Shown here: piece by piece, positions 3,591 through 46,604 of the stretch
Layout of the letters: every line of letters starts with the position of its first letter
Position numbering within the stretch: position 1 is the stretch's first letter
DNA from: Escherichia coli
Lineage (GTDB): Bacteria > Pseudomonadota > Gammaproteobacteria > Enterobacterales > Enterobacteriaceae
Length of the DNA stretch: 64,000 nucleotides
Reading direction: 5' to 3' (one strand)
Assembly: GCF_016026235.1 (NCBI RefSeq)
Contig: NZ_CP065613.1
Translations under genes and position numbers: made by a program
The notes under the pieces: generated by a model
Seen by the model: only the letters and a program-made list of their open reading frames with translations
What the model was told of the DNA's origin: nothing
The model's database searches: none

Positions 3591-3754
3591 AATGACATCC
3601 TCAAGTGATAAGTTAATTAACTCACCAGCAGAGGTGCTAATCTCATGGGTGGTGAGACGCACAGGGTTAGCACTACCGGTCACTCGAGAACCCGGCCAGC
3701 CTTGCGGCTGCCCCGCACGCCTCACCATAATTTGAATGTGGCTGTGCATTACGC

Positions 3755-3781
3755 ATAAAAAAACCGCTTCAGCGCGGTTAT
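3755..3781 (-). terminator. Rho-independent terminator (minus strand)
   Basis: Minus-strand hairpin AACCGC-GCTGAA-GCGGTT followed by TTTTTTT. Confidence 0.4.
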
Positions 3782-3905
3782 GCGCTCGAGTAACTTTCGG
3801 GGTGCTAATCCCGGCACCCGTTTTATGAGGTGCAGGTGCACTATAATTCCACCCGTTCTGGTTTTCAATAGCTACATTCAACATTTTCTCTTTCCTTTCA
3901 TCACC

Positions 3906-4060
3906 GAAGTGAATTTTGTGATGCGGTGCCTGGTGCCTCCAGGTGACGTTAACCAGTTAACAATTACAGTCGGCTTTCCCACCCAAAACAATAAGGACTA
4001 ACATGACTTTTAACTGTGCCGCGTGCGCTTAGCCGCATTCACCGCATCACAAAATTCACT
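3906..4060. repeat. Perfect 22-bp inverted repeat pair (3906-3927 and 4039-4060) flanking 111 bp
   Basis: AAGTGAATTTTGTGATGCGGTG at 3906-3927 and its exact reverse complement at 4039-4060; encloses palindrome GTTAACCAGTTAAC. Confidence 0.7.
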
Positions 4061-5229: not shown

Positions 5230-5649
5230 TTATTCCGGTGGGGGATTATCTTTAATCCTGCCTCTCAAATATTTTTCTACATACTCATCGATTTCTTTTA
5301 GCCGGACTTCAAATAGCTCAATCATTCGTTGTTGTTCTGAGCCCGGTAGCTGGTTAAACAACTCAAGAAGTTTTCGTTGGGATTCATTTAACCACAATTC
5401 AGAAGATTCCTGTTCTCCAAAGAGGAGCTCAGGAGGAGATATGCCAAGTGCCTTTCCCAATACGACAGCGTCATGTACTCCAACATTTCTGCTGCCCGCC
5501 TCATAGTTACCTATACGCGATTGCGTCCATCCGCAGATTTCAGCAAGTTTTCCTTGAGATAAACCAAGCTTCTGCCTGCGCTCTTTAAGACGCATTGCAA
5601 TTTTGTCATTGAGCCTACTAGCGGCAATTTTTTCGTTTTCTTTTTCCAT
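5230..5649 (-). CDS. HTH (XRE-family) prophage repressor, cI/RacR-like; no S24 peptidase domain
   Basis: HTH motif LGLSQGKLAEICGWTQSRIGNYE; divergent from cro-like gene; AAGGA Shine-Dalgarno. Confidence 0.7.
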   Translation of the reverse strand: MEKENEKIAASRLNDKIAMRLKERRQKLGLSQGKLAEICGWTQSRIGNYEAGSRNVGVHDAVVLGKALGISPPELLFGEQESSELWLNESQRKLLELFNQLPGSEQQRMIELFEVRLKEIDEYVEKYLRGRIKDNPPPE

Positions 5650-5660
5650 TGCATCCTTGT

Positions 5661-5721
5661 ATCACGAATCGTGATTTACATAAAACACAAAACAGCTTGA
5701 CTATATAACACAAGGTGTGTT
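5661..5721. promoter_or_regulatory. Immunity-region operators and divergent promoters
   Basis: Perfect palindrome ATCACGAATCGTGAT (5661-5675); inverted repeat AACACA-agg-TGTGTT (5707-5721) overlapping a TTGACT -35-like hexamer (5697-5702) upstream of the cro-like gene. Confidence 0.45.
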
Positions 5722-5745
5722 TAAAATTGTCATCGGAGGTTTTCA

Positions 5746-5988
5746 ATGAACAAAATTTCAACATATCGAAAACAGCTTGGGCTGTCTCAAAGACAACTTG
5801 CTGTTCAGTTAGGGTGGATACAAAGCCGACTGGCAAATTACGAAGCAAATTTTCGTACCCCTGGACTAGAGGAGTGCAGAAAAATTGTTTCTACCCTTAA
5901 TCGGCTTGGCGCTCATTGTGGACTTGACGATGTATTCCCCCCAGACGGTAAGCATAGCGAAAACAGCATAGGAGCGGTTGATTCATGA
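5746..5988 (+). CDS. Cro/YdaS-like HTH regulator
   Basis: HTH LGLSQRQLAVQLGWIQSRLANYE; GGAGG Shine-Dalgarno; divergent from repressor. Confidence 0.65.
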   Translation: MNKISTYRKQLGLSQRQLAVQLGWIQSRLANYEANFRTPGLEECRKIVSTLNRLGAHCGLDDVFPPDGKHSENSIGAVDS

Positions 5989-6407
5989 AAATCAGGCATG
6001 AGCACATCGAATCAGTGTTGTTAGCCCTGGCAGCCGAAAAAGGGCAGGCGTGGGTCGCTAACGCAATTACTGAAGAATATCTGCGCCAGGGGGGAGGTGA
6101 ATTGTCTCTGACACCAGGCAAGGACTGGAATAATCAGCAGAACATCTATCATCGTTGGTTAAAAGGTGAAACGAAAGCGCAAAGGGAAAAAATTCAGAAA
6201 CTGATCCCTGCGGTTCTGGCAATTCTTCCGCGCGAGCTGCGTCACCGACTCTGCATCTTCGATACCCTGGAACGCCGTGCATTACTGGCGGCGCAGGAAG
6301 CGTTGAGTACGGCAATTGATGCGCATGATGATGCAGTCCAGGCCGTTTACCGGAAAGCGCATTTCAGCGGCGGCGGGTCTTCCGACGATTCTGTCATTGT
6401 TCATTAA
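5985..6407 (+). CDS. YdaT-like prophage protein
   Basis: 140 aa, same length and position as Rac YdaT; start overlaps cro-like stop. Confidence 0.5.
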   Translation: MKIRHEHIESVLLALAAEKGQAWVANAITEEYLRQGGGELSLTPGKDWNNQQNIYHRWLKGETKAQREKIQKLIPAVLAILPRELRHRLCIFDTLERRALLAAQEALSTAIDAHDDAVQAVYRKAHFSGGGSSDDSVIVH

Positions 6408-6470
6408 GCAAAAGTTTCCATGCTGTTTGTGCTTATTCTAAGCAACCGGGCAGCATCATACGGGGCAATT

Positions 6471-7619
6471 ATGGCCGCATTACCATACATGCAACTGTAC
6501 ATAGCTGATTACCTGGCTGACACCATGCATTTGTCAGCAGAGGAGCACGGCGCGTATTTGTTGCTGATGTTCAATTACTGGCAAACAGGAAAGCCAATAC
6601 CCAAAAACAGGTTGGCAAAAATTGCCCGTCTGACTAACGAGCGATGGGTTGATGTTGAACCATCCTTGCGGGAGTTTTTTTGTGATAACGGCGACGAATG
6701 GATGCATCTTCGGATTGAGGAAGATCTGGCATCTGTCAGAGAAAAATTAACCAAAAAATCAGCCGCAGGAAAAGCATCTGTTCAGGCCAGAAGAAGCAGA
6801 AAGGAAGCAGATGTTCAAACAAAACAAGAGAGAAATTTAACAGGTGTTCAAACAGATGTTGGAGTGATGTTCGAACATGATGCCAACACAAAGGCAACTA
6901 ATAAAGATACAGATAAAGATCTAAAAACAGATCTAACCCATCCCAAACCCTTCCCTTCCGGAAGGGAGTTTCGGGATTTTGTGGCTGGAGTGCTTGAGGG
7001 GAGATTATCTGGCGGTACTGCAGCGGAATTTTGTAATTCTGCGGTGGTTGCGTTGCAGGCTGCTGGCCTGGATGTCTGTCGTGAGTATCCGGTGCCAGAG
7101 CGTGGTGACGGTTGCGGAGGGCGGATTGATATCGTCGTGACTGACAGGAACGGTGTCCGGTGTGGGATCGAGCTTGACCGAAATTCTCCGCGACAGAAAT
7201 CACTGCTCAAAATCGGTGCTGTTGAAACCGGGATATGTGTCTTGCGGCGCAGTGATATCGCAAGGCACACCGAGCAGGGAATTCTGGTTATCGGTGGGGC
7301 TGTTCGCCAGAAAAAATTTGACCCGTTGTCAGTTGATCTGCCCGACTGGTTGCCAGAAACACTCTGGCATGAGTGGGTCCAGTTCAGGCAGGCATTGCGA
7401 AAACCGATTCGAACGGAGCAGGGCGCTAACGGGGCGATACGGGAACTGGAAAAATTCCGTCAGCAGGGTTTTACACCTGAGCAGGTGATTCGACACAGCA
7501 TCGCCAATGAATACCAGGGTCTGTTCGCGCCGAAAGGTGTTCGGCCTGAGACGTTGCTCCGACAGGTTAACACCGTCTCGTTGCCGGACAGTGCGATCCC
7601 GCCAGGCTTCAGGGGGTAA
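6471..7619 (+). CDS. Replication initiation protein (DUF1376/YdaU-like) with extended central region
   Basis: N-terminal YMQLYIADYLADTMHLSAEEHGAYLLLMFNYW resembles DUF1376; ATG at 6471 chosen over track start 6420. Confidence 0.55.
   Translation: MAALPYMQLYIADYLADTMHLSAEEHGAYLLLMFNYWQTGKPIPKNRLAKIARLTNERWVDVEPSLREFFCDNGDEWMHLRIEEDLASVREKLTKKSAAGKASVQARRSRKEADVQTKQERNLTGVQTDVGVMFEHDANTKATNKDTDKDLKTDLTHPKPFPSGREFRDFVAGVLEGRLSGGTAAEFCNSAVVALQAAGLDVCREYPVPERGDGCGGRIDIVVTDRNGVRCGIELDRNSPRQKSLLKIGAVETGICVLRRSDIARHTEQGILVIGGAVRQKKFDPLSVDLPDWLPETLWHEWVQFRQALRKPIRTEQGANGAIRELEKFRQQGFTPEQVIRHSIANEYQGLFAPKGVRPETLLRQVNTVSLPDSAIPPGFRG
6811..6935. repeat. Iteron-like repeats plus AT-rich tract inside replication gene (putative ori)
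   Basis: ATGTTCAAAC (6811), GTGTTCAAAC (6845), ATGTTCGAAC (6867) followed by AT-rich AATAAAGATACAGATAAAGATCTAAAAACAGATC. Confidence 0.4.
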
Positions 7620-7625
7620 CAGACC

Positions 7626-8372
7626 ATGAAAAATATTGCGACAGGAGGCGTTCTGGAGCGTATCCGCAGACTGACCCCACCACATGTAACCGCCCCATTC
7701 AGAACGGTTGCGGAGTGGCGCGAGTGGCAACTTGCTGAAGGCCAGAAACGTTGCGAGGAGATCAACCGCCTGAATCGTCAGTTGCGGGTGGAAAAAATCC
7801 TGAACCGCTCCGGCATCCAGCCGTTGCACCGGAAGTGTTCGTTTGCGAATTACCGGGCGCAGAACGACGGTCAGCGACATGCACTGAGTCAGGCGAAATC
7901 CATAGCTGACGAACTGATGACAGGCTGTACGAATTTTGTGTTCAGCGGTAAGCCCGGCACCGGAAAAAATCATCTTGCAGCCGCGATTGGCAACCGGCTG
8001 ATGGCGAAGGGGCGTAGCGTGATTATCGTCACCGTGTCCGATGTCATGAGCGTGTTGCATGAGAGCTACGACAACGGCAAATCCGGTGAAAAATTTTTAC
8101 AGGAGCTTTGTGGTGTTGACCTGCTGGTCCTGGATGAAATTGGCATGCAGCGGGATACGAAAAACGAGCAGGTGGTACTGAACCAGATTGTTGATCGCCG
8201 GACGGCATCGTTACGCGGTGTGGGGATGCTGACAAATATTAACCATGCAGCGATGAATACACTTCTCGGCGAGCGGGTGATGGATCGCATGGTCATGAAC
8301 GGCGGGCGCTGGGTGAATTTTAACTGGGAGAGCTGGCGTCCGAATGTTAGCCATTCGAGGGTTGTTAAGTAG
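7626..8372 (+). CDS. DnaC-like helicase loader (IstB-like AAA+ ATPase)
   Basis: Walker A GKPGTGKNHLAAAIG, Walker B LLVLDEIG; follows initiator gene. Confidence 0.75.
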   Translation: MKNIATGGVLERIRRLTPPHVTAPFRTVAEWREWQLAEGQKRCEEINRLNRQLRVEKILNRSGIQPLHRKCSFANYRAQNDGQRHALSQAKSIADELMTGCTNFVFSGKPGTGKNHLAAAIGNRLMAKGRSVIIVTVSDVMSVLHESYDNGKSGEKFLQELCGVDLLVLDEIGMQRDTKNEQVVLNQIVDRRTASLRGVGMLTNINHAAMNTLLGERVMDRMVMNGGRWVNFNWESWRPNVSHSRVVK

Positions 8373-8386
8373 TTTCAGGAGGATTT

Positions 8387-8809
8387 ATGGCGAAACCTTT
8401 TACTCCCGAACAGCGGGAAGAACTGAAGACGCGAATTGTGGAACTCGTGCATCAGGACGGTCGGGTCACGATTCGGCAGTTGTCAGATGAAACAGGTATC
8501 AGTCGTGCGTCTGTCGGTCGCTTATGCATGGAACTGGTCGCAAGTGGTGATGTATATAATTCTGGCTACGGGGTATTTCCCTCTGAACAGGCTCATAAAG
8601 ACTGGCAAAACGCCCGCAAAAAGCTATCGAGGGTAAAGGTGAAGAAACCGGTTGTGGTTGATCCTGACCTTATCTGGTCATTACCAGACGGAGAAATACG
8701 CCGCTACGACAGGCGCCTGAATATAATCTGTCGCGAGTGCCGGAAGAGCGAAGCTATGCAGCGCGTGCTGGCGTTTTATCAGGGGAAATTTCAGGAGGCG
8801 GTACTGTGA
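8387..8809 (+). CDS. hypothetical prophage protein (possible winged-helix)
   Basis: 140-aa ORF directly after dnaC-like gene. Confidence 0.45.
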   Translation: MAKPFTPEQREELKTRIVELVHQDGRVTIRQLSDETGISRASVGRLCMELVASGDVYNSGYGVFPSEQAHKDWQNARKKLSRVKVKKPVVVDPDLIWSLPDGEIRRYDRRLNIICRECRKSEAMQRVLAFYQGKFQEAVL

Positions 8810-8852
8810 GTAAAATTAGCTATGAAGTGGTCAACAAAAACTGGCCACCGAG

Positions 8853-10000
<1,148 letters not shown>

Positions 10001-10119
10001 TATGGCACCTGTGTTGTTCTGAGGTGAGCATATCACCTCTGTTCAGGTGGCCAAATTCAGTAAACCACTTCACTATCAGGCTTCAATTACCGCTGGTATT
10101 CGCATCAAAGGAGAGGAGC

Positions 10120-12298: not shown

Positions 12299-12479
12299 AA
12301 GGAAACAAAACAGAAACAGCAATTGCCGTTACCTGTTGTTACCATGGCAAGTAAACGTATCTCAGGCGAGCGCATTGCGCCGTTCTGACGCAGATAAACT
12401 AGCCTGGATAGATGGTGCTGGCAATAAAAAATAGCGTTTTCTTATCGGTGTCGGTAAGATTGCTGCGGGTGCTTGAGGC

Positions 12480-12635
12480 TGTCTGCCTCGGGCATGTCAC
12501 TGTAAGGCAGACAGAGAAAAGCCCCAGTTAACATTACGCGTCCTGCAAGACGCTTAACATTAATCTGAGGCCCAATCTATGTCTCACAAATGTAGGTTAG
12601 CCTCTTACGTGCCGAAAGGCAAGGAGAAGCAGGCT
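12480..12635. promoter_or_regulatory. hok mRNA leader with stem-loops; expected location of sok antisense RNA
   Basis: Inverted repeat GTCTGCCT...AGGCAGAC (12481-12512); 9-bp hairpin GGCGGGAGA-GTAA-TCTCCCGCC downstream at 12800-12822. Confidence 0.35.
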
Positions 12636-12791
12636 ATGAAGCAGCAAAAGGCGATGTTAATCGCCCTGATCGTCATCTGTTTAACCGTCATTGTGACGGC
12701 ACTGGTAACGAGGAAAGACCTCTGCGAGGTACGAATCCGAACCGGCCAGACGGAGGTCGCTGTCTTCGTAGACTACGAATCTAGAGAGTAA
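12579..12791 (+). CDS. mok: mok-like in-frame extended reading frame overlapping hok
   Basis: 70-aa ORF ending at the hok stop, as MokC extends HokC in E. coli. Confidence 0.4.
   Translation: MSHKCRLASYVPKGKEKQAMKQQKAMLIALIVICLTVIVTALVTRKDLCEVRIRTGQTEVAVFVDYESRE
12636..12791 (+). CDS. hok: Hok/Gef-family type I toxin
   Basis: MKQQKAMLIALIVICLTVIVTALVTRKDLCEVRIRTGQTEVAVF is near-identical in pattern to HokD/RelF; AAGGAG Shine-Dalgarno. Confidence 0.8.
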   Translation: MKQQKAMLIALIVICLTVIVTALVTRKDLCEVRIRTGQTEVAVFVDYESRE

Positions 12792-14794: not shown

Positions 14795-14883
14795 CTCAAT
14801 CTGTTATCCGGGGCTATATTCCTCACGCGCCAGCAAAATCTGGCGTCGGGATTGGCGTCCCGGATGTTTACGGAGCGATATGA

Positions 14884-14904
14884 GACGCGCCCGCGTCTTT
14901 TTTC
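14884..14904 (+). terminator. Hairpin plus T-run downstream of Q (possible tR'-like terminator)
   Basis: GACGCG-CCC-GCGTC followed by TTTTTT. Confidence 0.4.
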
Positions 14905-15066
14905 ATATCGTTTGCACAGTCTCATTCGCGATTTATGGCGGGCTGTGTGGGGGAGCCGAAAGGCTCGCCGGTTTCCGTACCCGGTTACGCCAACCCTGCA
15001 CAGTTCGCCACCAGTTCGATTGGCGTCGTCGGTGGCGATAATTTCCAAATGTACGGAGTTATCGTT

Positions 15067-15832: not shown

Positions 15833-15909
15833 GGCCCTTTAGCTCAGTTGGTCAGAGCGAGCGACTCATAATCGCCAGGTCGCTGGTTCAAGTCCAGCAA
15901 GGGCCACCA
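15833..15909 (+). tRNA. tRNA with CAU anticodon (Met or Ile2, ileZ-like)
   Basis: Manual cloverleaf: acceptor GGCCCTT/AAGGGCC, anticodon loop CTCATAA, 3' CCA. Confidence 0.8.
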
Positions 15910-15910
15910 A

Positions 15911-15987
15911 CCACCACTAGCTCATCCGGATAGAGCATCAACCTTCTAAGTTGACGGTGCGAGGTTCGAGTCCTCGGTGGTGGGCCA
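15911..15987 (+). tRNA. tRNA-Arg (UCU)
   Basis: Acceptor CCACCAC/GTGGTGG, anticodon loop CTTCTAA, T-loop TTCGAGT, 3' CCA. Confidence 0.75.
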
Positions 15988-15989
15988 GC

Positions 15990-16065
<76 letters not shown>

Positions 16066-16068
16066 TAT

Positions 16069-16143
<75 letters not shown>

Positions 16144-46239: not shown

Positions 46240-46548
46240 TGAATAAATCCTTTAGTTATTTTATTTGCCTTTTATCCCCATTTCGGGGAGTGAAAACATC
46301 CTAAAGGAGAAGTTCAGTTAGCCGATAAATATCATTTGTTACGCCTTAAGTAAAACCTTAATCAAAAAATTCCTCTGAAATGATAATAAGTCTGGTGAAT
46401 GTATCGAAGATAATACATACAAAATAAAAATTATACTTTTAATTTTCTATACGTTATTCTGCGCGGGTTATATGCCTTTATTGTCACAGATTTTATTTTC
46501 TGTTGGGCCATTGCATTGCCACTGATTTTCCAACATATAAAAAGACAA

Positions 46549-46580
46549 GCCCGAACAGTCGTCTGGGCTTTTTTTTAGAA
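46549..46580. terminator. Bidirectional hairpin terminator between ydbK and ompN
   Basis: AAGCCC...GGGCTT hairpin flanked by A-run and T-run. Confidence 0.45.
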
Positions 46581-46604
46581 TTGGATAATCCTTATCCAGA
46601 GCAT

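Follow-up and report, generated by a model that had tools for sequence, protein, structure and literature searches.

The locus described here probably serves a Rac-type lambdoid prophage as its replication module, in which the origin lies within the initiator gene itself and a nuclease-fold cassette, carried in the middle of the initiator protein, is thereby tethered at or near that origin. The lambda-style origin is well supported by the anatomy of the DNA and by its homologues, and would consist of an array of short palindromes followed by an AT-rich tract, both placed in the DNA that encodes an interdomain linker; the cassette is, according to a structural model, an autonomous PD-(D/E)xK nuclease-fold domain with a BamHI-like E-D-ExD acidic set intact. 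Both were found in a 64 kb stretch of Escherichia coli DNA, referred to below as the window, and both extend the initial annotation, which had noticed repeat copies with an AT-rich tract, reminiscent of lambda, and an unusually long gene: the copies turn out to belong to a larger array with a phasing of ~11 bp, and the extra material is a PD-(D/E)xK-fold domain that recurs in unrelated initiators.

The initiator gene and its neighbourhood

The initiator belongs to the YdaU family and has the N-terminal DUF1376 domain of that family (Pfam PF07120, aa 5-87, E 1.4e-24), a winged helix like those of origin-recognition proteins, and it also matches the PHROG family phrog_6451, labelled 'primosomal protein' (E 2e-116). 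Together with the long basic helix that adjoins it, the winged helix is presumed to form the candidate origin-recognition part of the protein, and the C-terminal domain is presumed to provide the candidate contact with the helicase or the helicase loader. The latter is covered by a match to phrog_678, 'replication initiation O-like', which spans aa 279-356, and its residues 290-382 match the DnaT structures PDB 2ru8 and 9zbt (E about 2e-4 to 7e-4, with 1.8e-4 for 2ru8), which is why relatives carry the annotation 'primosomal protein I'; the likeness to DnaT is nevertheless confined to the C-terminal domain, and the NCBIfam DnaT model reaches 15.6 bits against a cutoff of 201. The neighbouring genes (Table 1) follow the lambdoid early-right order of cro-like gene, cII-like/YdaT gene, initiator and DnaC-like loader, the last two being separated by a gap of 7 bp.

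Table 1. Coordinates of the features of the replication module in the window
Feature	Position	Strand	Remarks
Divergent repressor gene	5230-5649	-	ORF
cro-like HTH gene	5746-5988		ORF
cII-like / YdaT gene	5985-6407	+	directly upstream of initiator; phrog_163 'CII-like transcriptional activator', E 1e-36
YdaU-type replication initiator gene	6471-7619	+	382 aa; uninterrupted ORF
DUF1376 winged-helix domain and long basic helix	6483-6803	+	aa 5-87 and aa 80-111
Outlying partial repeat copies	6563-6663	n/a	within N-domain coding region; GCTGATGTTCAA at 6563-6574, GTTGATGTTGAACCAT at 6648-6663; from repeat search
Iteron-like array	6805-6899	n/a	three TGTTYRAACA palindromes and two weaker units
AT-rich tract	6896-6935	n/a	(GATAMA)n-like repeat AACTAATAAAGATACAGATAAAGATCTAAAAACAGATCTA; 22.5% GC
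Cassette	6933-7310	+	126 aa (aa 155-280); Pro-rich joint LTHPKPFPSG and predicted PD-(D/E)xK nuclease-fold domain
Perfect 14-bp G+C-rich palindrome	6953-6966	n/a	CCCTTCCGGAAGGG; 18 bp right of AT-rich tract; also reported as hairpin
C-terminal DnaT-like / lambda-O-like domain	7338-7616	+	PDB and PHROG matches in text
DnaC-like helicase loader (YdaV homologue)	7626-8372	+	phrog_50 'DnaC-like helicase loader', E 5e-83

If translated from the in-frame ATG at 6420, the initiator would comprise 399 aa, and the annotation of K-12 YdaU begins at the equivalent position; Pseudomonas phage homologues begin with MAALPYMQLY, which corresponds to the start at 6471. Compared like for like from the equivalent of 6420, the protein exceeds the 285-aa YdaU of K-12 by 114 aa, all of them internal. 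The suspicion that a wrong start codon might account for the extra length is therefore rejected, the added residues being internal and 6471 being the conserved start, and the surmise of the initial annotation that the additional material sits in the middle of the protein is borne out.

The nuclease-fold cassette

Outside the cassette the initiator shares 91% protein identity with YdaU of the K-12 Rac prophage, and both genes have the same neighbours; the two proteins are not collinear throughout, 126 residues standing mid-protein in the place of 12 (PPLNPPRGNRGV). At the DNA level, 33 bp of the empty site (...GATCCCCCCCTAAATCCCCCCCGGGGG...) are replaced by 375 bp in the filled one, and the pair does not represent a clean insertion. 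The cassette boundaries, ...TD/LTHPKPFPSGREF... and ...GGAVRQ/KKF..., show neither splicing motifs (an N-terminal Cys or Ser, or a C-terminal His-Asn followed by Cys, Ser or Thr) nor flanking repeats. An intein, an IS or MITE insertion and a pseudogene were all rejected on the strength of these boundaries, the open reading frame and the selection that acts on the cassette, which is strongly purifying (pN/pS 0.03, with 11 synonymous changes against 1 nonsynonymous).

The structural model of the cassette is confident (pLDDT 92.6), has a restriction-endonuclease-like alpha-beta-beta-beta-alpha-beta core and finds structural neighbours exclusively among PD-(D/E)xK proteins, with which weak PD-(D/E)xK sequence matches agree. 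The predicted candidate catalytic residues are E205, D220, E234, D236, K243 and K247 (nt 7083-7211): the four acidic ones, at least 90% conserved, lie on beta1-beta3 of the model, the third motif is of the ExD rather than the ExK type, and the two conserved lysines sit in the helix that follows this motif. All four acidic residues are retained in 75 of the 83 embedded and 51 of the 62 stand-alone copies. The nearest types of PD-(D/E)xK nuclease appear to be BamHI/OkrAI, NucS, Hjc and Mrr/AF1548, from which the cassette differs in its ExD motif, in a family-specific RGDG loop and PRxKSxxKL helix, and in its location in theta-type initiators instead of restriction, repair or recombination proteins. 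No Pfam or NCBIfam family reaches threshold for the cassette; among the PADLOC defence models the full initiator has no match and its stand-alone relatives have just E values of ~0.003-0.009 to PDC-S11 and Cas4; and a literature search found no paper on the cassette.

A word-indexed protein search with the cassette returned only five close fragments, and an exhaustive one was needed to recover the family, which forms no fewer than 296 clusters when grouped at 50% identity; a 12-sequence alignment was used for the locus scan. Embedded copies follow DUF1376, HTH_36, Phage_rep_O, DUF6291 and other winged-helix N-domains, and in these unrelated phage initiators the cassette occupies the site between the DNA-binding and the helicase-recruiting domains, with DnaC-like, DnaB-like, primase or helicase genes downstream. 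Stand-alone cassette genes occur as well, adjoining helicase genes, and in many Stx2a-converting phages they lie beside helicase and primase genes. Viral contigs also contain 'N-truncated' versions of 242-274 aa, but these are IS-disrupted copies and do not represent a third architecture. HNH and T5orf172/GIY-YIG-like domains, which are typical of homing endonucleases, also occur inside DUF1376 initiators.

In E. coli two initiator backgrounds, YdaU and EDL933/ETEC4075, each occur with and without the cassette, which is carried by only 39 of 5426 complete genomes, about 1500 of which have related initiators. Being dispensable in close relatives, it cannot be a core step of initiation. A presence or absence in otherwise near-identical backgrounds, with the same boundaries and so sporadic a distribution, is also what would be expected of a selfish homing-type element that uses the iteron-binding domain of the initiator as its targeting arm, cuts cassette-less alleles beside the origin in related phages or prophages that share the cell, and enters those alleles as a copy during repair of the break, a reading that would leave the origin model unchanged. 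It would fit the HNH and GIY-YIG-like domains mentioned above, the fact that the cassette is always encoded beside the binding sites of the initiator, across unrelated initiator families, and the ~70 bp to the right of the cassette, which are strongly diverged from K-12 and common to the other filled allele, in the manner of a co-converted flank. An analogy may be drawn with modular homing endonucleases of the I-TevI type, in which a flexible linker connects a small nuclease domain with a separate domain that recognises a specific DNA sequence, and which likewise are sporadically distributed among near-identical alleles, although here the fold is another one, the cassette resides in a protein essential for replication, no intron or intein surrounds it, and empty and filled sites do not form a clean insertion pair. 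We nevertheless consider homing unlikely: the cassette shows no decay, the acidic tetrad being kept in about 87% of 145 clusters under the purifying selection described above; 33 bp exchanged for 375 bp is unlike a clean insertion; the architecture holds even between phages that are very distant and differ in their N- and C-domains; the stand-alone copies sit in helicase/primase operons, as would those of a functional replication factor; and the linker is in any case the sole permissive insertion site.

The opposite possibility, that the cassette is an inactivated nuclease fold serving as a non-catalytic structural or DNA-binding spacer, for oligomerisation or for grip on the DNA at the origin, seems to us quite improbable. 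Across the 296 clusters, four acidic residues are near-invariant at the canonical positions and are accompanied by R/K/S residues in the next helix, which resembles a metal-dependent active site, and matches to the BamHI family were found for the cassette, BamHI itself using an ExE variant of the nuclease motif.

Repeat array and AT-rich tract in the linker-coding DNA

The DNA encoding aa 112-143, a stretch that links the winged-helix domain to the one after it, contains three sites of the form TGTTYRAACA (6812-6821, 6845-6854 and 6868-6877), which fit within 66 bp and have no further copy in the 64 kb. The core is a 10-bp palindrome or near-palindrome, perfect in the third copy (TGTTCGAACA), and two weaker units, GCCAACA and GGCAACT, follow downstream, so that the AAC cores of the array fall at 6818, 6851, 6874, 6885 and 6896 with spacings of 33, 23, 11 and 11 bp; within the window, 14 of 2000 shuffles reach the observed score for this ~11 bp phasing. 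The initial annotation had listed three copies of (A/G)TGTTC(A/G)AAC, and these are real, at 6811, 6844 and 6867, the second having been placed one base off at 6845; three matches in 64 kb compare with 0.56 expected, a count that none of 100 shuffles reaches. At one mismatch the motif shows no window-wide enrichment (12 matches against 9.5 expected), which means that the signal is that of a local cluster. The significance of the outlying partial copies in the N-domain coding region is uncertain, and phage PfDIW6 has a second repeat cluster at the equivalent place (L004, 2678-2718). No DnaA boxes were found near the candidate origin, and Tandem Repeats Finder detects the hexamer tract only and misses the iterons.

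The AT-rich tract, which had been reported to follow the repeats and does so, is the GC minimum of the initiator gene and of the whole operon (5650-8810), ranks in the lowest 0.4% of the 40-bp windows of the 64 kb, and is a candidate DNA-unwinding element. At the place equivalent to the G+C-rich palindrome on its right, the K-12 allele reads CCCCCGGGGG.

This layout recurs in homologues, the absence of the repeats from which would have spoken against an origin. K-12 Rac and a further E. coli allele (L012) have the same three sites with the same 33- and 23-bp spacing, and K-12 Rac shares sites and tract with the present locus apart from four SNPs, its third site reading TGTTTGAACA instead of TGTTCGAACA. 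Equivalent phased arrays were found in five further YdaU-family genes (L004, L005, L006, L099 and L100). In Pseudomonas phages and metagenomic relatives, whose N-domains range from 75% to 38% identity, this part of the gene holds phased (G)TTCAAC/CAACG repeats that lead into a hexamer-repeat tract, the architecture of array and tract occupying the same codon positions in PfDIW6, PfAn1, AH02, L099 and L100. Initiators with unrelated N-domains have different repeats at the same gene position, as illustrated by the ETEC4075-type initiator, with three copies of TGTAACGC-N4-GCGTTACA at the equivalent place, and by a lambda-O-type Providencia phage, with four iterons of 23 nt and, after them, an A-rich tract. 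The E. coli A34 allele retains the DUF1376 domain with a different repeat set, which suggests that the winged helix may not be the element that confers specificity.

The origin reading is tempered by the fact that hydrophilic linkers are AT-rich through coding alone. Repeats and tract might accordingly be by-products of a low-complexity hydrophilic interdomain linker, with the true origin elsewhere in the prophage; the linker does contain many K, D, T, E and N residues, which have AT-rich codons, the array lacks extra conservation among six E. coli alleles, where it is no more conserved than the N-domain (8 versus 14 segregating sites, mostly nonsynonymous), and the absence of enrichment at one mismatch points the same way. 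We hold this to be very improbable. Sites 1 and 2 share a codon phase and site 3 has a different one, which argues that the repeat belongs to the DNA and not to the peptide, and a phasing of 11 bp cannot track codons; a (GATACA)n tract persists at the position of the AT-rich tract in Pseudomonas phage genes with a GC content of 51-57%; the sequence of the repeat switches with the type of N-domain while its position stays constant; and the tract is the GC minimum of an entire operon.

The resemblance to lambda proposed in the initial annotation is thus supported by gene order, by the 'O-like' and DnaT matches of the C-terminal domain, and by repeats and tract in the linker DNA, and it extends as an analogy to lambda O and ori-lambda together with their P22, phi80 and 21 kin: in both cases the origin would lie inside the initiator gene, in the DNA for the linker between a DNA-binding N-domain and a helicase-recruiting C-domain, and dyad-symmetric repeats precede an AT-rich tract. 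The parts, however, differ. The lambda origin has four iterons of about 19 bp, and the N-domain of lambda O is Phage_rep_O, whereas here 10-bp palindromes are phased at ~11 bp, the N-domain is DUF1376 with no phage_O_Nterm match, a DnaC-like loader stands in place of lambda P, and the DNA directly right of the AT-rich tract encodes an additional domain with a predicted nuclease fold. The present origin would therefore work like lambda ori while standing outside the O/ori-lambda sequence family.

Proposed mechanism and wider meaning

From this anatomy we infer a sequence of events in which the N-terminal winged-helix/basic-helix part would bind, as a dimer, to the phased TGTTYRAACA palindromes in its own linker-coding DNA, binding would strain the adjacent hexamer-repeat tract and lead to its unwinding, and the C-terminal DnaT-like/O-like domain would recruit the host helicase through the neighbouring DnaC-like loader; the logic of lambda O, ori and P would thus be executed by unrelated parts. 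The cassette is optional, and the variants are reassorted through recombination inside the AT-rich tract; it would be a metal-dependent nuclease that the initiator keeps in place at or close to the origin and that acts on origin-proximal or replicating DNA.

Annotation pipelines currently break such intact genes into pseudogene fragments: PGAP splits the initiator because 126 residues replace 12 mid-protein, so that RefSeq lists the identical locus of strain VL40 as two pseudogene fragments with partial CDS, and 'hypothetical protein (x2)' stands over the cassette in many other genomes. That the long gene itself reflects an error of annotation or assembly, or is a disrupted pseudogene, is hardly credible, given a reading frame open throughout, an identical 382-aa protein from Salmonella in UniProt/AFDB, a cassette in frame in 39 genomes and many viral contigs, the excess of synonymous changes, the compact domain fold, and boundaries devoid of terminal repeats, target-site duplications or intein motifs.

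An origin within the initiator gene is the lambda paradigm, and in this respect the result is an ordinary yet useful one. An active origin, oriJ, has been reported for the Rac prophage (PMC3945230), and the array and tract supply a concrete, testable sequence for the Rac-type origin. Phased CAAC-type repeats together with a hexamer-repeat tract moreover provide a recognisable signature for the whole DUF1376/YdaU family, whose mode of action is unannotated.

The cassette, as a conserved nuclease fold lacking a Pfam or NCBIfam model, is less expected than the origin, and we know of no need for a nuclease in theta-type initiators. It is conceivable, though we put this forward only tentatively, that unrelated families of theta-type initiators have on repeated occasions acquired an active endonuclease domain, placed exactly beside their origins, where it would either nick or cut in order to redirect replication, for instance towards a rolling-circle or recombination-dependent start, or act as an 'origin-homing' cassette that attacks cassette-less rivals by way of the iteron-binding domain of the initiator. 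If true, either role would give lambda-like initiators an activity that has not been described before, and if the cassette does cut origin DNA, it would bear on the switching of replication mode in temperate phages or on their competition with related prophages.

Prophage setting and extent of the initiator gene

The window carries an Escherichia coli Rac-type lambdoid prophage, and the position of its MicC RNA presumably agrees with the Rac neighbourhood. Its replication operon, whose K-12 counterpart is the region racR-ydaS-ydaT-ydaU-ydaV, is listed below together with the elements discussed in the following sections. An IS3-family element sits directly 3' of the Ren-like gene of this operon, and two C4 antisense RNA/isrK pairs, which are immunity RNAs of the P1/P7 type, are oppositely oriented, with about 11 kb between them. 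The open reading frame of the YdaU-type (DUF1376) initiator comprises 382 aa if translation starts at 6471 and 399 aa if it starts at the ATG further upstream, at 6420, which is the start used for the annotated K-12 YdaU (285 aa); Pseudomonas-phage homologues start MAALPYMQLY, which favours 6471. The initial annotation had called the protein unusually long owing to material in its middle, and this is borne out by alignment: like for like, it exceeds K-12 YdaU by 114 codons, and the excess is wholly internal.

Coordinates of features in the window and, where a locus is named, in comparison loci
Feature	Position	Strand	Detail
C4 antisense RNA/isrK pair	3645-3833	-	
Divergent repressor	5230-5649	-	
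cro-like HTH gene	5746-5988		
cII-like/YdaT gene	5985-6407		
YdaU-type initiator gene	6471-7619	+	
RTGTTCRAAC repeats	6811, 6844, 6867		sites 1 to 3
AAC cores of the array	6818, 6851, 6874, 6885, 6896		
AT-rich tract	6896-6935		22.5% GC
Cassette	6933-7310		LTHPKPFPSG...GGAVRQ
G+C-rich palindrome	6953-6966		CCCTTCCGGAAGGG
DnaC-like helicase loader	7626-8372		
Ren-like gene	8387-8809		
IS3-family element	8853-10036	-	orfA 9698-10036, orfB 8853-9671
sok antitoxin RNA	12467-12641		
C4 antisense RNA/isrK pair	14814-15015	+	
tRNA cluster	15833-16143		Met, Arg, Thr, Gly
MicC RNA	46464-46584		
TGTAACGC-N4-GCGTTACA copies	L003:3535-3555, 3727-3747, 3935-3954		ETEC4075; also in L096 (EDL933)

A lambda-style candidate origin inside the gene

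Three repeats followed by an AT-rich tract had been reported within the initiator gene, and both elements are real. RTGTTCRAAC has no further match in the 64 kb, where 0.56 matches are expected by chance and the observed three were not equalled in any of 100 shuffles, and the tract is the GC minimum of both the initiator gene and the 5650-8810 operon, falling within the lowest 0.4% of all 40-bp windows of the 64 kb. Allowing one mismatch gives no enrichment across the whole window (12 observed versus 9.5 expected), so the repeat signal is a local cluster. Its core is a 10-bp (near-)palindrome, TGTTYRAACA, and the three copies form part of a more extended array in which the AAC cores are spaced by 33, 23, 11, and 11 bp, roughly whole helical turns; 14 of 2000 shuffles were as well phased, by a measure chosen once the data had been seen. 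Sites 1 and 2 are read in the same codon phase (as DVQT and GVQT) and site 3 in another (MFEH), and since such spacing cannot track codons, the repeats are a feature of the DNA and not a peptide repeat. The same sites at the same spacing are found in K-12 and in a third E. coli allele, in both of which site 3 is TGTTTGAACA, that is, sites 1 and 2 inverted, a form that would fit a symmetric site bound by a dimer. A perfect 14-bp palindrome, for which the K-12 allele has CCCCCGGGGG, lies at the start of the cassette, 18 bp right of the AT tract; the lambda ori, too, has a palindrome right of its AT-rich region.

In YdaU-family genes of falling similarity, this layout recurs at matching codon positions (roughly aa 115-145): the gene at locus L099 (N-domain identity 75%) has GTTCAAC / GTTTGAAC and then (GATACA)5, PfDIW6 (68%) has CGTTCAACG / CGTTGAACG four times at 11 bp and then a purine-rich AT tract, PfAn1 (56%) and AH02 (51%) have TCAACG-type units at 11-12 bp and then (GATACA)n, and the gene at L100 (38%) has CAACGG at about 11 bp and then (CTTCAC)4. 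In every YdaU-family gene compared for GC, including genes of 51-57% GC, the minimum lies at aa 128-142. Initiators whose N-domain is unrelated have other repeats in the corresponding position. In a Providencia phage whose N-domain is truly of the lambda-O kind, four iterons of 23 nt precede an A-rich tract, and the ETEC4075/EDL933-type initiator, whose N-domain is PHROG 2509, repeats the 20-bp palindrome TGTAACGC-N4-GCGTTACA three times, probably as its own origin or operator set. The latter copies are about 200 bp apart: one precedes the start codon, one falls within the sequence coding for the N-domain, and one is in the linker.

The model of the DUF1376 domain (pLDDT 86) shows a winged helix that leads into a long basic helix; its structural neighbours are winged-helix domains of ORC, Cdc6, and a plasmid initiator. 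The last 90 residues of the protein match both the DnaT C-terminal domain and an "O-like" PHROG family. In the mechanism that we propose, a dimer of the N-terminal part would bind the palindromes, the AT hexamer tract would melt, and the C-domain would recruit the helicase through the neighbouring loader.

It counts against an origin that, in a sample of six E. coli alleles, conservation of the array does not exceed that of the N-domain: 8 sites segregate in the 95 bp of the array (2 synonymous, 6 nonsynonymous), clustered around the third site, versus 14 in the 309 bp of the N-domain (10 synonymous, 4 nonsynonymous). In E. coli A34 (L014:1552-2835, NZ_CP028741.1), DUF1376 residues 1-83 are unchanged. 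A T5orf172/GIY-YIG-like domain stands in for the next ~130 residues, including the iteron-coding linker, and the repeats that precede the same (GATACA)n hexamer tract are of another kind, built of AACTACG units; as DUF1376 is kept and the repeats differ, either specificity resides in the basic helix or the A34 allele is defective. The A34 gene is followed by a lambda-P-like gene, not a DnaC-like one.

With repeats, tract, and a layout kept across the family, the lambda-like arrangement first suggested still stands, and a lambda-style origin inside the initiator gene appears well supported by these sequence comparisons but is unproven. Rac is reported to have an active origin, oriJ (PMC3945230). 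The candidate origin inside this gene is probably the sequence of oriJ. A lambda-type ori within the initiator gene is already a known arrangement, of which this would be one more case.

A nuclease-like cassette beside the AT tract

The DNA of K-12 and of the window allele is identical up to ...AAAAACAGAT within the AT tract, after which K-12 has about 35 bp (PPLNPPRGNRGV) in place of the 378-bp cassette; about 70 bp to its right are strongly diverged from K-12, and high identity then resumes. In ETEC4075, the cassette and C-domain are 96.9% identical to those of the window and fused to a completely different N-domain, which is found without the cassette in O157:H7 EDL933, so the two pairs give presence and absence of the cassette in two backgrounds with the same boundaries. 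Recombination within the AT tract or close to it reassorts the initiator variants. The cassette is not a clean insertion: target duplication, terminal repeat, and intein motif are all absent from its boundaries, and empty sites hold a 33-35-bp C-rich segment instead.

Of 5426 complete E. coli genomes, 39 have the cassette, in each case as one chromosomal copy, and related initiator sequence occurs in about 1500 genomes. RefSeq/PGAP splits the intact gene into two partial pseudogenes or two hypothetical proteins (L002:4001-5200 in VL40, and many further genomes), a systematic mis-annotation due to the internal domain; the pseudogene call is wrong, given the open frame and a pN/pS of 0.03 between two E. 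coli versions of the cassette (11 synonymous changes, 1 nonsynonymous). Insertion sequences have landed independently in the ydaU iteron/AT-tract region of other genomes, with an IS3-family element after codon ~165 in one (L013:1501-3491) and a second IS (L026 and L027) whose flanking matches to the window overlap by 5 bp, equivalent to 6879-6883; such disruptions are the source of the database entries for "N-truncated" cassette proteins of 242-274 aa.

When 1.84 billion representative proteins were searched exhaustively, 296 relatives of the cassette were recovered at E <= 1e-3. Of those listed (150), 83 carry the domain embedded in a protein of 250-745 aa, at a distance of 130-170 residues from its N-terminus, and a further 62 are stand-alone proteins (100-140 aa). 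The family consensus is A..FH..L..G..V.RE.pV.DRGDGR.GRvD.V...gIELDR..PR.KS..KL....V.LR. No Pfam or NCBIfam family matched the cassette, nor did any known defence system, and a literature search found no paper on the domain; its sole family match is PHROG 1347, which has no function assigned. All weak matches are to PD-(D/E)xK families (MTES_1575, BamHI, Mrr_cat, Hjc, AF1548, OkrAI, Cas4), and both the AlphaFold model (68-sequence alignment, pLDDT 92.6), of alpha-alpha-beta-beta-beta-alpha-beta topology, and Foldseek against AFDB50 agree with this assignment. AFDB50 also holds an identical, uncharacterised 382-aa protein from Salmonella. The candidate active site comprises E205 on beta1, D220 on beta2, and E234-x-D236 on beta3, with K243 and K247 in the following helix; each acidic residue is kept in 81-98% of embedded and stand-alone copies, and all four are present in 75 of 83 and 51 of 62, respectively. 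The BamHI motif is an ExE variant, so the ExD of the cassette is not disqualifying.

In long proteins, the N-terminal partners include DUF1376 (8), HTH_36 (7), Phage_rep_O (4), DUF6291 (3), and several other winged-helix families, and the C-terminal partners include Phg_2220_C and DnaT. For about 11 of the 17 distinct gene types with an embedded copy, the GC minimum of the gene ends 6-41 nt upstream of the projected domain start, and the Providencia lambda-O-type gene has the order iterons, A-rich tract, cassette. Partners and GC minimum together indicate that the cassette recurs as the middle domain of phage initiators, its coding sequence lying immediately to the right of the presumed origin. 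Across 80 viral contigs, the downstream gene is a DnaC-like loader, a DnaB-like helicase, or a primase, stand-alone copies being followed by an SF helicase and then a primase. This stand-alone form before helicase/primase occurs in about 100 phage records, mostly of Stx2a-converting phages, where it occupies the expected initiator position and no other initiator is annotated; in Escherichia phage PhiR12_3 (L007:2926-3303), a 125-aa homologue lies between cro/cII-like genes and SF helicase plus primase.

Possible roles of the cassette

The observed anatomy comprises position-conserved DNA repeats, a neighbouring loader, and a folded, selected, nuclease-like cassette that is optional and modular. 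Since close relatives that lack it still replicate, the cassette cannot serve as a core step of initiation; it may be a metal-dependent nuclease kept near the origin. We tentatively lean towards an accessory nuclease with origin-proximal or replicating DNA as its target, which it might, for example, nick to redirect replication. This role is favoured by the strong conservation of the cassette and the operon context of stand-alone copies, and no specific point speaks against it. HNH and T5orf172 domains are likewise found inside DUF1376 initiators, of which nuclease-type domains seem to be recurrent passengers; fragments with HNH (PF01844/PF14279/PF13395), T5orf172 (PF10544/PF13455), or RusA (PF05866) are P0202, P0220, P0238, P0239, P0244, P0259, P0262, P0194, and P0273. 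The parallel HNH and T5orf172 insertions, the presence/absence pattern, and the diverged right flank would suit a homing or competition element using the DNA-binding arm of the initiator, but the cassette is without decay and its junctions are not clean, which leaves this reading rather unlikely. A non-catalytic spacer, which would suit a top structural neighbour that we take not to be a nuclease, is improbable in view of the near-invariant acidic set. As an accessory nuclease or otherwise, the cassette adds a new part to these systems: an uncharacterised, widespread nuclease-fold domain within theta-type phage initiators, beside their presumed origins.
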